DNA of 36,243 nt from UHGV virus genome UHGV-0229041. One strand, given 5' to 3'. Below, piece by piece: positions 23,331-28,583 of the stretch (positions are counted from its first letter, which is position 1; each line of letters begins with the position of its first letter). The position numbers and the translations under genes were made by a program. This DNA comes from a virus. Under the pieces are notes generated by a model. It did not search any database, was not told the origin of the DNA, and saw only the letters and a list, made by a program, of their open reading frames with translations.

Positions 23331-23483
23331 TGCTGCCAGTCGCAACCATTTTTTATCAACCAGGCTGGCGGTATATCCGAGCAGAGTTGGTATTTCGGAT
23401 GGCTTCAGCTCAGGTTTACGCTTACGACGATTTGGTACTTTGTAGATGTGTCCGTTCATGACACGAATAAGCGGTGTAGCCAT
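23313..23483 (-). CDS. ninE: NinE-like protein
   Basis: Manually translated 56 aa [56 protein letters not shown]; TAATG overlap with the ninB stop. Confidence 0.6.
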   Translation of the reverse strand: MATPLIRVMNGHIYKVPNRRKRKPELKPSEIPTLLGYTASLVDKKWLRLAARRNHG

Positions 23484-23938
23484 TACGCCTCCTGCTTGTC
23501 GCGCAGCAGCTGGAACTCGCAGCTCTGCGGAATAGTCAGGTGGCAGCCAATATTCATCGCCCAGGCTTCAACCTTACACAGGAAGACATACATCTCTCCG
23601 GTATCAAGATCGGAGGTATGGCGTAACGACTGGATAGTAGTGATTTCGCCGGTTACGACATCAACCAGGTCCTTGGTTTCATAACCGAGGTATGTGTGTT
23701 TGAGAGCATCTTTTACCCATGCTGCGGTAGCGAACGATTTCCCCCTGCTGATGAGGTATTCACTGATTTCGCTGTACCACATGTGGCTGAGTGCATTCTG
23801 GGAAAGACTGCGTCTCTCTCGCCACGGTTTAAGCACCATGCGAAAGCATTTGCCTTCCTCCAGATAAGGCTGGATCTGCTGGCCGATAGCGGTGAAGTTA
23901 CCACGATGCAATTTGATGCCATCTTGTAGGAGGTTCAC
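23483..23938 (-). CDS. ninB: NinB recombination protein (DLP12 YbcN-like)
   Basis: 151 aa with RSLSQN motif characteristic of NinB, first gene of the nin cluster. Confidence 0.75.
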
Positions 23939-24129
23939 GATTCACCTCCGCAGAGGTCAAACGCTGGATGCAAAAAATCGCAGGTACATTTCTGCATCTG
24001 TGAAGGGAGAAGAGAGTTTGGATTGTATGTGCGCATAAACGTCCCCGTTTAGCGCAGAAGTCACCGGAGTTGTTCAGGCTCCGGTGACTTAATTATGACA
24101 AGTTGATTATGGAAAATCAAAGCTTGTCA

Positions 24130-24675
24130 TCAGAACAACGAATAATTTAAAAACTCTATAATTTCTAAGATTTTTTCACTTATCGCTGGAATGAAACGTA
24201 AAGCAAAATAGAGCCCCAAAAAACCCAATATTGAGTACGAAACCGTGATAGCGACTCTGTATTTTTTCTCGCCTCGTTTCACTCTCTCCCACTCAGTTTT
24301 AAGAACACTGGAACTATATTCAAAATACTGTCTGACCACATCTGTAATGTTAGATGAGCGATCCATTTTTAAAATGTAATCCTCAATGATTTTCAAAAGC
24401 TGAGACTCTTCATTAGTTAAGTTTTTACTGGATAACCTAAGCTTCACTTTTGCGGAAAGAAAATAAATTTTTCCAGCCACCTCAGGGAGCTTCTCAGGCG
24501 GAGTCGTGCGTAATTGTAAAAAGTTCTCCATCAATTCAGCTAACTCTTCCCTTAAACCATCTATCCACGCTTGCCGAAACTCAGATGTTTTATTCTCCTT
24601 AGTGATAACAAGCCCCACTCCAGCTGCAGCTGCGGCAATAATTGCGGCGACAACTGAGGCTATCCCTGCATCCAT
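24130..24675 (-). CDS. Hypothetical membrane protein of the cargo island (TM helix at each end)
   Basis: 181 aa, ATG with GAGGGG Shine-Dalgarno, hydrophobic N- and C-termini, AT-rich codon usage. Confidence 0.55.
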   Translation of the reverse strand: MDAGIASVVAAIIAAAAAGVGLVITKENKTSEFRQAWIDGLREELAELMENFLQLRTTPPEKLPEVAGKIYFLSAKVKLRLSSKNLTNEESQLLKIIEDYILKMDRSSNITDVVRQYFEYSSSVLKTEWERVKRGEKKYRVAITVSYSILGFLGLYFALRFIPAISEKILEIIEFLNYSLF

Positions 24676-24814
24676 GAATTACCCCTCAAAACAATATGAA
24701 TATGAATATGATTCGATGCCTTCAGCAATTGAAAACTAAAACTCCCTGTAATGTCACATCTGCCCATGAATGTGTTTTCTTCATACAGCTTTGCTGCAAT
24801 ATCTAAATCAGACA

Positions 24815-25141
24815 TTAGTCAGCGGTTCTCCCGCGCCAGCGTTTGTTACTTTCTGATATTCTTTCTGTATCAACGGACTCAACCTCACCTTCTGAAAACC
24901 TAACTGCATTAGCTTTAGCCATTGCCTTCCTAGCATCTTCTTCCGCCTGGCTAAAATGCACCTTCTTTCTTCCCTTGAAACTACCAACGCGAATTTTGGA
25001 AGAGGCCTGCGTCTTGTACTTGCTAATCCGTAATTGTGCCGCCAAATGGGCTTTTGCCTCGGTGCGGTTCGCTGGCTTCTTCTTTACTAATTCAAGGTCT
25101 AAATGGTACTGCTGCTCAGCTCTTAGTTTCTTCGGTTTCAT
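24815..25141 (-). CDS. Hypothetical basic protein of the cargo island (ATG at 25141)
   Basis: About 108 aa, Lys/Arg-rich MKPKKLRAEQQYHLDLELVKKKPANRTEAK; the ORF-track start 25159 is a TTG. Confidence 0.45.
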   Translation of the reverse strand: MKPKKLRAEQQYHLDLELVKKKPANRTEAKAHLAAQLRISKYKTQASSKIRVGSFKGRKKVHFSQAEEDARKAMAKANAVRFSEGEVESVDTERISESNKRWRGRTAD

Positions 25142-25469
25142 AATATCACTCTCAAACAAAGTCCATTTATCATAGAATAAAAGCCCTCTAAGAGCTTTGA
25201 TTTGTATCTATGCTAATTCCCGTCAATTTGTTCTTCATTTTACCTCCAGCTGTTGTGCTGCTGCAGTGGCATTCAATAGTTTTCCTTCTAAGCATCCTAC
25301 AAAATCGGTGACGAGTCATGACCAGTTCACGTAGTGCAATGAAATTACTGCAATCTATTATGACGCAAATGCGTCAATACTCGAATCAACTGATCATCCT
25401 GCCACGACTGAAATCTCAAATAGGCCGTTTCTCAAGTAAGAGATTTTGAATGCATTATTGGCTACTGAA

Positions 25470-25493
25470 ATAAAAAACCCAGCGCCAACTGGG
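25470..25493 (-). terminator. Intrinsic terminator downstream of the secreted-protein gene
   Basis: Minus-strand CCCAG-UUGGCG-CUGGG hairpin followed by UUUUUUUAUUU (plus-strand stem 25478 to 25493, A-run 25472 to 25477). Confidence 0.55.
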
Positions 25494-25512
25494 TTCATAT
25501 GAAATTTTTTTG

Positions 25513-26007
25513 TCATTTCCAATTGCAAGACTGTGAAATTTTTTCCACAACCTTATCAATCTCAGACAAGTCAAACTCAACTACTTGCATAGTTGATCCA
25601 TAAGGTTCAAACCCAAAAATAGCTTTTTTATGCTTAGCCAAGGTCTTTATAAATTGTATTGGTTGTGGAGCAAATGCAGAATCACCGCCTTCCCCACCTC
25701 CCCAAACACTCTTGACCGGCTTTCCGCCATCTAACCGCACTGTAATTCTTGGGTTGTCCGACCCCATATAATCATTGAATGATAAATAGGCATCTGTTTT
25801 GTTATCACTACAACGCAACACCAGTGAAGTTGCACGATCAGTACCTGCTTTGTTATATGAATCTGGTGATAAATTAAGAGCCACAAAGTCAGTCTGGTCA
25901 GTCATTTTATTTATCTCAGACTTTGTTATCCACGGCCCTAACTTCTCTACACCAGCATTTGCTGTAAACGAGGCACTTATGACAAAGGCTAAAATAAATT
26001 TTCTCAT
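25513..26007 (-). CDS. Hypothetical secreted/periplasmic protein with signal peptide
   Basis: MRKFILAFVISASFTANA signal-peptide-like N-terminus; AGGAGA Shine-Dalgarno; two Cys in the mature part. Confidence 0.55.
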   Translation of the reverse strand: MRKFILAFVISASFTANAGVEKLGPWITKSEINKMTDQTDFVALNLSPDSYNKAGTDRATSLVLRCSDNKTDAYLSFNDYMGSDNPRITVRLDGGKPVKSVWGGGEGGDSAFAPQPIQFIKTLAKHKKAIFGFEPYGSTMQVVEFDLSEIDKVVEKISQSCNWK

Positions 26008-26153
26008 AACCCTATCTCCTTGGATTTAAAGAACTAAATATTATCAAGTCTCTTGCCACTAGAAAACCCACTTTATTTCCAAACTCTGACGGCATTCCTG
26101 AAAATCCGCTTCATACTCACTTGCCCCGCCCTATCATCCTGAGTAGCTAACCG

Positions 26154-26327
26154 TTAAACAAACGTTCGCCAGACCTTACCATCAATGACCAGGATTCCTG
26201 CCCGCGCCATTTTTGCCGCAGCCTGATTTATGCTGGTTAATGTCATACCTGTTGTCGCAGCAACGTCCGGCGCACAGAAGCTCTTGTGCGTCTCCAGATA
26301 ATGAATAATTGCCTCTTTGCCCGTCAT
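26154..26327 (-). pseudogene. ren: ren, N-terminal 57 codons only (truncated relative to about 96-aa lambda Ren)
   Basis: MTGKEAIIHYLETHKSFCAPDVAATTGMTLTSINQAAAKMARAGILVIDGKVWRTFV matches the recalled N-terminus of lambda Ren; ATGA overlap with the P stop. Confidence 0.6.
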
Positions 26328-27025
26328 ACAGTTGCTCCTTTCAGTCCGAACTTCGCTTTGATTTCTGCGATCTTCGCCAGAGCCTGTGCACGATTTAGAG
26401 GTCTACCGCCCATGACAGGAAGTTGTTTTACTGGTTCAGGTATCGCCTCACCACGGTTAATTCGCGCGGTCATACAAGTCAGTTCATCGGCAGCCTTGCG
26501 CCGTAATTCCGCATCAGTCAGCGCATTGGCCCGCATGTTCTGATACAGGTTGGTAACCAACCAGTAGTGCGCGTTTGATTTCCATGGATAAGACTCTGCA
26601 TCCGGATAAAGGCCACGCTTCCGGCAATACTCGTAAACCATATCAACCAGCTCGCTGGCGTTTGGCAGCCCGGCGTTAACGGATGCTTCTTCCCGGCACC
26701 AGGCGACAAACTGCCCGGGTGATGGCAGGAATGGTCGATTCTGCCGACGGGCTACGCGCATTCCTGCGTTAACCTGTTCCATTGTGGTGATCCCGTTTTC
26801 CCGGAAAGCCAGAACCCACTGGCGGCGGATTTCGTTCAGTTCATTCTGGTCACGGTTAGCCAGGCTCGCCGGGAAAGTTGCCAGTAACTGGCTGAACACA
26901 CCGTTGATGATCTGCGCTACCTGCTGTACCTGCGGCTTTTCGTCGTACTGTTCCGGCATGTTGTTGGCGATCCGGCGCATCTGCTCACGGTCAAAGTTAA
27001 CCATCTGTGCGGCGATGTTTTTCAT
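26324..27025 (-). CDS. P: Replication protein P (DnaB helicase loader)
   Basis: MKNIAAQMVNFDREQMRRIANNMPEQYDEKPQVQQVAQIINGVFSQLLATFPASLANRDQNE, near identical to recalled lambda P. Confidence 0.95.
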   Translation of the reverse strand: MKNIAAQMVNFDREQMRRIANNMPEQYDEKPQVQQVAQIINGVFSQLLATFPASLANRDQNELNEIRRQWVLAFRENGITTMEQVNAGMRVARRQNRPFLPSPGQFVAWCREEASVNAGLPNASELVDMVYEYCRKRGLYPDAESYPWKSNAHYWLVTNLYQNMRANALTDAELRRKAADELTCMTARINRGEAIPEPVKQLPVMGGRPLNRAQALAKIAEIKAKFGLKGATV

Positions 27026-27951
27026 AAATCCACCCCGTAAATCCAGTCAGTGTTTGTCAGGTCGAGTTTTGGTTTGCTGGCTATCATGCCTGCCTGTTGC
27101 TTGTTACGGTTGATTTCGAGTTGGGTCCACTTGTCGCGGAGTTTGGCCGGACTCAGCACGTTACCTGACCAGAAGTTGTCCTGGCATGCCCAGCGGAACA
27201 GCACGCACATGTCGCGGTGGTTACGTCCGTCACGTTCACGCATCAGGCGGATATCGTTAGCCCACCCTGCAAAATTCGGTTTTCTGGCTGAGGGCGCGAT
27301 GGTCTTCACCATGTCAAACATCCACTCTGCGGCGGTCAGGTCTTCTGCTGTCCCCCACTTGCTGCCGCTCTGAATTGCAGCATCCCGTTTCTCCACAGGA
27401 AAGTCGTTTTCTGGCTGGTCAGAGGATTCGCCAGAATTCTCGGACGAAAAAGGTTTTATATTGTCTTTTGTTAGTTTGTCTTTTGTGTTTACCTGATTCG
27501 GGTAAGTGCCTTTACCTGATTTGGGTAAACTTTTCTTACCTGATTCAGGTAAATTTACCTCTTTCAGGTAAACTTTATTTTTCTTACCTGATTCGGGTAA
27601 TGTTGACCATTCACTGACCACATTATTAATGCCGATATTCCGCCCGCTCTGAATAAAAATCCCACGCTTTACCAGAACACTTTTTGCAGCAGAACACTTG
27701 TGCGGCAATATCCCGGTCAACTCGGAAAGTTGCTCGTTGCTCACCCAATCCAGTTTTTTATTAAAGCCATATGTTTTGCGCATGACAGCCAGGAAGACCA
27801 GAAGCTGGTGCTGTGTTAATCCGGCCAGCATCACAGCTTCCAGCAACTCATTTGCAATGCGCGTATAACCATCATCGAGATCTGCCACGCGCGGCTCCTT
27901 TTGTGCCGCATCCGGCACTGGAAAATTGAATATCTCAGCAGTGTTTGCCAT
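27022..27951 (-). CDS. O: Replication initiator O (ATG at 27951 with GGAGG Shine-Dalgarno)
   Basis: MANTAEIFNFPVP...VADLDDGY resembles the lambda O N-terminus; contains the ori iterons; the ORF-track start 28041 overlaps the upstream gene. Confidence 0.9.
   Translation of the reverse strand: MANTAEIFNFPVPDAAQKEPRVADLDDGYTRIANELLEAVMLAGLTQHQLLVFLAVMRKTYGFNKKLDWVSNEQLSELTGILPHKCSAAKSVLVKRGIFIQSGRNIGINNVVSEWSTLPESGKKNKVYLKEVNLPESGKKSLPKSGKGTYPNQVNTKDKLTKDNIKPFSSENSGESSDQPENDFPVEKRDAAIQSGSKWGTAEDLTAAEWMFDMVKTIAPSARKPNFAGWANDIRLMRERDGRNHRDMCVLFRWACQDNFWSGNVLSPAKLRDKWTQLEINRNKQQAGMIASKPKLDLTNTDWIYGVDL
27489..27600. repeat. Replication origin iterons (five copies of a roughly 18-bp TTACCTGATTCGGGTAA-like repeat) inside O
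   Basis: Copies at about 27489, 27512, 27536, 27555 and 27584, each an internal TTACC...GGTAA inverted repeat. Confidence 0.75.
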
Positions 27952-28037
27952 AATTCCTCCCGCAATGAGTGTGTTACGATTTGCACCTGAAAGTCGGTTC
28001 TGTTCCAGCAGACCGGCTTTCGCCATTTCTGAACCTG

Positions 28038-28583
28038 TCATATCGCCCCCAGCATGGTAGTAACCATCGCCATCAATGGACCAGCCAGATCCGGGTCCAC
28101 ACGAAACATCGACACAATACCTTCACTCATTTCCTTCAGTTTCTGGTGGCGTGGTGCGTTGAGAATGACAGCCTGTTTTGCCTCACTGAGTTCCTTTTCC
28201 ATTTCAGCCAACCTAGCCATGAAGCTATCCTGCTCAACCAGGTAACCGCGATATTCCAGCGGTAGTACCGCCAGAATTGCCGGGGTCAGTTCACGCACGT
28301 TATTTCGGTATTTTTCAGAATCGAATTTGTTATCGAGGAAGCGGAACAGCTTCTGGCGTGCACGGCTGACATCATCAGGGAAATCGATGGTGCCGCCGCC
28401 CTGCTCCCGATACTCATTCACAATGAGTGCGGCAACAACATCCTGATTATCTGCAGCCGACCAGGCGCGAACGGCATCACGGATTTTTTCGTGGCCTGGC
28501 GCCTGTTTTGTTTGAGAACGATTTATCACCGCAGTCGGGCTAAATCCGCTAGTCTGTTGGTATGTAAGTGGTTGCATAGTCAT
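28038..28583 (-). CDS. YdaT-like regulatory protein (cII-position gene)
   Basis: 181-aa ORF between the cro-like gene and O, Rac ydaS-ydaT-like arrangement. Confidence 0.55.
   Translation of the reverse strand: MTMQPLTYQQTSGFSPTAVINRSQTKQAPGHEKIRDAVRAWSAADNQDVVAALIVNEYREQGGGTIDFPDDVSRARQKLFRFLDNKFDSEKYRNNVRELTPAILAVLPLEYRGYLVEQDSFMARLAEMEKELSEAKQAVILNAPRHQKLKEMSEGIVSMFRVDPDLAGPLMAMVTTMLGAI

Follow-up and report, generated by a model that had tools for sequence, protein, structure and literature searches.

The moron concept of Juhala and Hendrix (summarised in PMC3594210) has been applied to phages such as HK97 and HK022, whose morons are extra segments of DNA relative to related phages, with a deviant GC content, a promoter and a terminator of their own, and expression from the repressed prophage. 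Additional DNA is also known from the junction between ren and the nin genes of lambdoid phages: phage lambda has only 73 bp there, including the terminator tR2, and the DLP12 prophage of Escherichia coli K-12 has the 4.1-kb block emrE-ylcJ-ybcK-ybcL-ybcM. Here we analyse this junction in the UHGV virus genome UHGV-0229041, a stretch of 36,243 nucleotides that we refer to as the window. Positions 24122-26082 of the window (1,961 bp, the accessory block) are a hypervariable accessory zone between the O/P/ren and the nin genes of a lambdoid E. coli prophage of the phage 82/DLP12 type, which, to judge from nucleotide alignments, is almost certainly filled by three independently assorting single-gene modules. 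We call their genes g1, g2 and g3 in the order in which they follow P and ren on the minus strand (Table 1).

The DLP12 prophage shares both slot and backbone with the window: there, too, the slot lies between a ren pseudogene and the genes ylcH-ybcN(ninB)-ninE-ybcO-rusA-ylcG-Q. Its homology to the window ends at 26083 and restarts at 24121, and the genes between these points are wholly different in the two prophages, occupying 4.1 kb in K-12 versus 1.96 kb in the window; ren itself was broken by IS3 in K-12, whereas in the window it was broken by a stop codon and a frameshift. An initial annotation of this DNA had placed an AT-rich island between P/ren and ninB, at 23939-26153. The AT-richness stands, with a GC content of 39.7% for the block versus 51.2% for the window as a whole and 0.50/0.51 in the 2-kb flanks; nowhere in the window does an equally long stretch fall below it in GC, and 0.15% of sliding windows are equally low. 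The endpoints had to be redrawn at the two limits of backbone homology just given. The same annotation took the ren-nin junction to be a variable slot of lambdoid phages, in agreement with what lambda, DLP12 and other E. coli prophages (g1 plus other genes) have there. Among 5,426 complete E. coli genomes, the flanks P and ninB match in 3,669, g1 matches in 84, and g2 together with g3 in 15, and none of the three is a core gene. As had been noted, all three open reading frames (ORFs) lie on the minus strand and each has a Shine-Dalgarno sequence: AAGGAG at 26016-26021 for g1, GAGGGG at 24682-24687 for g3 and a weaker GAGAG for g2.

Searches with blastn separated the block into segments with different relatives. 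The first of these, 26082-25363, comprises the tail of ren, g1 and its terminator, and is common to strain GB089 and the isolated phage IdasGreatGrand, in both of which different genes then follow. The second, 25263-24777, carries g2 and recurs at 83.6% identity in a prophage of FDAARGOS_1277, where it is followed by a theta gene. The third, 24685-24122, carries g3 and recurs at 74% in an Enterobacter kobei prophage, where it is directly contiguous with ninB. The mosaic joints accordingly fall at about 25363/25263 and 24777/24685, and the single island that the initial annotation implied gives way to three separately inherited modules. It could still be argued that a single insertion brought in the whole block and that its three genes act as one system, given that they are adjacent on one strand and that 15 complete E. 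coli genomes have all three with identical joints (strain AR_0061 and 14 others, which have a 3.3-kb counterpart at 98.8-100% identity). However, each gene is also found without the others: the 84 genomes with g1 far outnumber the 15 with g2 and g3, g2 occurs elsewhere with theta, and Enterobacter, Klebsiella and many phyla have g3 by itself. Moreover, a terminator and a 326-bp spacer separate g1 from g2, and no neighbour of g3 is conserved in 85 loci, the commonest neighbour cluster being present in 6 of them, nor is any partner conserved in 68 viral loci. We therefore regard a single three-gene system as extremely improbable and retain the mosaic description.

The locus is thus moron-type mosaic cargo in a ren-nin slot already known from K-12 DLP12, that is, textbook lambdoid mosaicism, and since both slot and mosaicism are known it changes nothing by itself. 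As with the morons of HK97 and HK022, the block is extra DNA relative to related phages, homology breaking at both of its borders, and it deviates in GC from flanks of 50-51%; a terminator of its own is a property that g1 shares with those morons but that g2 and g3 lack.

The strong intrinsic terminator that had been reported after the first gene is indeed present (Table 1). Relatives of g1 in Pantoea and Klebsiella, which occupy a different slot, likewise have sites composed of a hairpin and a T-run 3' of the gene. Like lambda tR2, the g1 terminator is the first terminator 3' of ren on the early right transcript, and a GC stem followed by TTTTTATTT is common to the two; the g1 terminator is nevertheless not homologous to tR2 in sequence, and an extra gene stands between it and ren. 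It might stop transcription from pR in the absence of N antitermination, thereby taking over the place of tR2. With a terminator of its own, g1 would be a classic moron, a mobile gene-plus-terminator unit.

To understand what this unit encodes we compared g1 with protein family libraries. The initial annotation had counted three unrecognised genes; the count was right, but g1 is recognisable as VasI-like and the NCBI Prokaryotic Genome Annotation Pipeline (PGAP) calls it 'type VI secretion system-associated protein TagO'. Taken at its word, this name would make g1 a true TagO/VasI accessory of a type VI secretion system (T6SS), which modulates the T6SS of the host or resists T6SS attack. In line with this, g1 scores 26.7 against the Pfam VasI model (PF11319; gathering score 26.5), all 25 relatives of g1 match the same model, and g1 is predicted to be exported, as VasI is predicted to be. 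On the other hand, g1 aligns with the C-terminal half of the Pfam model only, and it reaches 14.4 bits with the NCBIfam equivalog TIGR03360, far under the cut-off of 124.2. Furthermore, in all the contexts that we read g1 copies belong to prophages, where they occupy the ren-nin slot (E. coli) or the tail operon (Klebsiella and Pantoea), and are never near a T6SS cluster; as for TagO/VasI itself, a 2026 review (PMC13584744) lists its function as unknown. A T6SS role hence appears very unlikely, and g1 is best seen as a remote branch of the VasI domain that prophages carry and that is no T6SS component. Its subfamily appears to be a prophage moron, never seen beside a T6SS, for which the PGAP name is misleading in all 84 of the E. 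coli genomes with a copy.

Several features point to the periplasm as the site of action of g1. It starts with a signal peptide, MRKFILAFVISASFTANA, that ends in ANA and has no lipobox cysteine, and C66 and C161 are invariant among the 25 relatives, which fits an oxidised periplasmic protein. In fold it resembles Bartonella IalB (PDB: 3dtd), although the corresponding Pfam family, PF06776, gave no sequence match to g1. None of the VasI/TagO and IalB relatives has a known molecular function and the PHROG family of g1 is one of unknown function; the models of PADLOC-DB 2.0 yielded nothing better than E 0.01 for g1, and a profile made from its alignment found nothing meaningful among PDB sequences. 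Relatives with 55-60% identity sit between the tail chaperone and tape-measure genes in Klebsiella and Pantoea prophages, which is the position of HK97 gene 15, the first described moron (PMC3594210); HK97 gp15/YebO itself has no sequence relation to g1. Based on these observations we propose that a disulfide-bonded protein with the VasI/IalB fold would be exported to the periplasm of the lysogen, where it would most likely alter the envelope, with phage exclusion or lysogenic conversion as the effect. The 90%-identity protein cluster that includes g1 also includes many 233-residue sequences labelled 'replication protein P', which looks like a clustering artefact, perhaps stemming from a fused gene call.

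The second module has a different character. The g2 protein matches phrog_14068, a family of unknown function, at 3.5e-64, with noise only in Pfam, NCBIfam and PADLOC (in PADLOC-DB 2.0, nothing better than E 0.01), and its 44 relatives are nearly all from Enterobacterales. All nine contexts that we read are lambdoid prophages in which the gene lies between the replication and the nin genes, and in seven of the nine the stop codon of g2 overlaps the start of a phage gene for the theta subunit of DNA polymerase III. Homology ends 38 bp after g2 in the window and the theta gene is missing. Accordingly, g2 looks like an ordinary early-region accessory gene and not like cargo. It would go with the phage replication accessory genes, and its usual theta partner may have been lost when g3 was joined on. 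Many lambdoid prophages of enterobacteria, but not the one in the window, have a phage theta (HolE-like) gene in their replication-nin zone, and it is frequently coupled to a member of the g2 family. A TTG start at 25159, listed among the ORFs, is used neither by PGAP nor by the PHROG profile and was set aside.

The third module is the one whose protein family is the only part of the locus that might be new biology. The g3 family is represented by 5,019 clusters at 50% identity with E<=1e-3 (782 with E<=1e-30) and spans Gamma-, Beta-, Alpha- and Deltaproteobacteria, Acidobacteria, Nitrospira, Verrucomicrobia and Bacteroidota. Searches of Pfam, NCBIfam, PHROG and PADLOC assigned g3 to no significant family (with nothing better than E 0.01 in PADLOC-DB 2.0), a profile built from its alignment recovered nothing meaningful among PDB sequences, a Foldseek search of viral structures in BFVD with its model returned nothing at E<=0.001, and a literature search by protein accession found no paper. 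We aligned 62 relatives, which share only ~30% overall identity, and built on them an AlphaFold2 model with a predicted local distance difference test (pLDDT) score of 91.4, in which helices cover residues 3-54, 60-81, 88-101 and 111-180. The two hydrophobic segments are predicted transmembrane (TM) helices, and the family means for lysine plus arginine are 0.15 in the N-terminal tail, 3.1 after TM1, 4.6 before TM2 and 0.9 in the C-terminal tail. In one relative of 324 residues (P0322), TM1 is preceded by a lipoprotein signal (LAGC) and collagen-like Gly-X-Y repeats. This charge distribution and the lipoprotein signal before TM1 suggest an out-in-out topology with the helical bundle in the cytoplasm. 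Other relatives have extensions of 100-150 residues after TM2, which would be periplasmic add-ons; apart from the one lipoprotein/collagen N-terminus, no fused Pfam domain was detected in the extensions of longer relatives.

Examination of the alignment revealed 16 invariant and 8 nearly invariant columns that form three groups. The first consists of the invariant K26, E27, K29, S31, E32, F33, R34, Q35, W37 and R42, with I38 and L41 nearly so; the second of the invariant L79 and the nearly invariant R80; and the third of the invariant W129, V132, K133, G135 and E136, with L125, K126, E128 and R131 nearly so. The corresponding motifs are TKENKTSEFRQAWI..LR and LK.EW.RVK.GE. When mapped on the model, all three groups appear to fall at the end of the bundle nearest the membrane; its distal half is variable. 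The bundle recalls those of histidine kinase and chemoreceptor sensors, in which, however, it is periplasmic, whereas the charge distribution puts that of g3 in the cytoplasm; g3 further lacks a kinase, HAMP or methyl-accepting domain and ends ~15 residues after TM2, so that neither the periplasmic bundle nor the cytoplasmic signalling domain of a sensor is found in it.

We then examined the genomic habits of the family. Of eight relatives whose contexts we read in detail, seven are in a prophage slot, at the edge of a prophage or in a defence setting. Those of Enterobacter, Klebsiella and Yersinia are just upstream of the nin genes in lambdoid prophages, that of Limnobaculum lies between icd and the integrase, at a prophage's outer edge, that of Pantoea is in a prophage remnant, that of Rhodoferax is adjacent to an integrase, and that of Marinobacter is in a region with two TIR proteins, SocA_Panacea and DUF4145. 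Among 148 immediate neighbours from 80 species the commonest Pfam family is the phage integrase, and matches to PADLOC at E<=1e-10 include GajA/Old/AriA-type ATPases, QatD, OloB, DolB, a defence reverse transcriptase and several 'PDC' candidates. In IMG/VR, 125 viral contigs carry a g3 relative, typically among methylases, RecT, theta and integrases, with about half of these relatives within 5 kb of a contig end. Such surroundings are those of an accessory gene that is mobile and associated with defence. In the replication-nin slot of the E. kobei prophage, the gene immediately upstream of the g3 relative encodes a Trypsin_2 protein that matches PDC-S45 (E 2e-100), and therefore the slot carries predicted defence genes in other species.

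Putting these observations together, we propose that g3 would span the inner membrane twice, its two ends facing outward and its four-helix bundle facing the cytoplasm, and that it may on its own act in phage exclusion or abortive infection. An infecting phage would be sensed by the bundle or, in the longer relatives, by the periplasmic tail; the signal could pass via the invariant juxtamembrane site to the Ala/Gly-rich TM helices, and these might then block the entry of DNA or collapse the membrane potential. A role for g3 in defence against superinfecting phages is a genuine possibility, which we would put at somewhat short of even. More tentatively still, the phylum-spanning family of lone two-TM proteins with the signatures KTSEFRQxW and EWxRVKxGE might constitute a new single-gene, membrane-acting anti-phage system that is spread by prophages, integrase islets and defence islands.

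Several observations weigh against this proposal. The eighth of the contexts read in detail, that of the Uliginosibacterium relative, is among ordinary metabolic genes with no mobile or defence genes nearby, and the defence enrichment of the neighbours, about a tenth of them as estimated from the family table rather than counted exactly, comes without a matched control. No match to g3 was found by tblastn in 50,697 phage genomes. Its structural matches, which include the sensor bundles of QseE, NarQ/NarX and TorS, are at only 10-12% identity and amount to generic four-helix bundles. Neither g3 nor its relatives has a significant PADLOC match: the similarity of relatives to LeoBC of the Eleos system is weak (best 1.3e-4, in 9 of 62) and was set aside as probably an effect of TM composition. 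As regards expression, a promoter scan of the block gave 4 sigma-70-like sites against 4.9 expected by chance, none of them just upstream of g1, g2 or g3, and the only candidate is an extended -10 element picked by eye, TGATAATAT (26038-26046), 30 nt before g1; because such sites do not exceed chance, expression from the repressed prophage is putative. Finally, all three genes are co-oriented with the early transcript from pR and could therefore be lytic-cycle genes.

The last two points lead to the main rival of our proposal, in which the three genes are delayed-early lytic accessory genes comparable to those of the lambda nin region, expressed only from pR with N antitermination and aiding replication or host takeover. 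They do share the orientation of P and ninB inside the early right operon, g2 normally accompanies phage theta in the replication-nin zone, and g3 relatives on prophage contigs are found among methylases, RecT and theta. Against this, g1 has a strong terminator and moves with it as a unit into tail operons, g3 relatives also occur outside prophages, both alone beside integrases and in a defence island, and the AT-rich, patchy modules fit the definition of morons. We thus consider the lytic reading unlikely, and on balance moderately favour the composite explanation, namely a mosaic zone in which g1 is a moron, g2 a replication accessory gene and g3 an exclusion gene.

The border of the block with ren also differs from what had been described. 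The initial annotation had ren reduced to its first 57 codons, with the insert replacing everything from codon 58 on. The 57-codon ORF is present and matches the Ren-like phrog_7054 and phrog_142, but ren-like DNA continues to about codon 89: in tblastn searches residues 1-78 of lambda Ren align in frame through the stop codon (26327-26094), and a second frame carries the alignment on, with residues 76-89, as far as 26062. Since the alignment crosses the stop and goes on in the second frame, ren has degenerated at its original site by acquiring a stop codon and, further on, a frameshift, and only about its last seven codons and the region of lambda tR2 are replaced. Likewise, nucleotide homology to lambda and to renD of K-12 DLP12 extends to 26083, with the identity to lambda ren falling from 97% to ~55% toward the 3' end, and PGAP labels the gene 'protein ren, frameshifted; internal stop'; no intact ORF of ~96 codons for Ren is found downstream of P. 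Two findings that the initial annotation had named as contrary to its view, the same genes as conserved core genes at this position and an intact ren elsewhere in the prophage, were looked for and not found: the three genes are not core, and tblastn detected no second ren homolog in the window. Ren lets lambda escape exclusion by Rex. No rexA or rexB homolog was found in the window by tblastn at E<=1, and as this leaves Ren without a rexAB to act against, the gene is probably dispensable in this prophage. In the identical prophage of AR_0061 the position after the repressor is taken by a different, 864-bp gene and not by rex.

At the opposite border, homology to phage 82 (X92588) and DLP12 restarts at 95% identity, and the segment 23935-24121 is therefore backbone and not cargo. 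It includes a hairpin at 24060-24088 on the minus strand (folding free energy, dG, -20.1 kcal/mol; z -5.4), which lies downstream of the promoter-like site, has no U-tract and is conserved both in phage 82 and in DLP12 upstream of ylcH-ybcN. In the region of the hairpin, the record for phage 82 has a -35, a -10 and a 'possible regulator-binding site' annotated. In AR_0061 the PGAP gene order is replication protein P, ren pseudogene, TagO, two hypothetical proteins, a 33-codon hypothetical gene, YbcN/NinB, NinE, YbcO, RusA, YlcG and Q.

Table 1. Coordinates of features in and around the accessory block, numbered as in the window
Feature	Coordinates	Strand	Description
O	27022-28041	-	
P	26324-27025	-	
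ren pseudogene	26059-26327	-	Open part of 57 codons (26154-26327); TAA at codon 58; later 1-bp deletion; last ~7 codons replaced
g1	25513-26007	-	164 residues, secreted (predicted); VasI/TagO-like sequence, IalB-like beta fold, two invariant cysteines
g1 intrinsic terminator	25468-25496	-	9-bp stem, UUUUUUAUUU tail; dG -12.2 kcal/mol, z -3.0
Non-coding spacer	25142-25467	-	38% GC; holds two mosaic joints
g2	24815-25141	-	108 residues from ATG; basic (isoelectric point 10.3, 27 K+R); phrog_14068
CATATT x3 hexamer repeat	24693-24710	-	Directly upstream of the g3 ribosome-binding site
g3	24130-24675	-	181-residue inner-membrane protein (predicted); TM1 ~4-24, cytoplasmic four-helix bundle, TM2 ~143-165
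Phage 82/DLP12 backbone	24037-24121	-	Promoter-like TTGATT-17-CATAAT site with TG; 12-bp perfect hairpin
orf33/ylcH-like gene	23935-24036	-	33 codons; annotated in AR_0061, phage 82 and K-12; stop overlaps the ninB GTG start
ninB	23483-23938	-	

In the spacer between g1 and g2, homology to GB089/IdasGreatGrand ends at 25363/25435 and that of the g2 module begins at 25263 (blastn). A 43-codon ORF in it (25188-25319) was rejected as unsupported, as was a hairpin at 25180-25198 that is no better than shuffled sequences (z -1.7). Rfam gave no match in the spacer, nor any in a scan of 23800-26400 at E<=1. A 51-codon ORF on the minus strand (24660-24815) is doubtful as a fourth gene, spanning two joints, being uncalled by PGAP and having both of its substitutions non-synonymous; its ATG overlaps the stop codon of g2 (TAATG), it ends 16 nt inside g3, and it is open in three alleles. 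The CATATT hexamer upstream of g3 is present in four copies in strain Res13-Lact-EA06-22 (NZ_CP062910), so that the number of repeats is polymorphic at what may be a promoter or leader. Insertion sequence (IS) elements of the IS1 and IS3 families sit in or beside the slot in several E. coli strains, including IS3C in renD of K-12, which suggests that the region tolerates or attracts insertions.

Within this otherwise familiar locus, the g3 family, with its ~5,000 clusters, confident predicted structure and invariant residues, its lack of annotation in all the libraries searched and its defence-gene habits, is the sole lead worth testing, and it can be tested cheaply by plating. The systems closest to the role proposed for it are P22 SieA, lambda SieB and RexB, T4 Imm and HK97 gp15. 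Although there is no sequence or fold match and the likeness is one of gene position and architecture only, all of these are, like g3, single small inner-membrane proteins encoded at prophage accessory positions.

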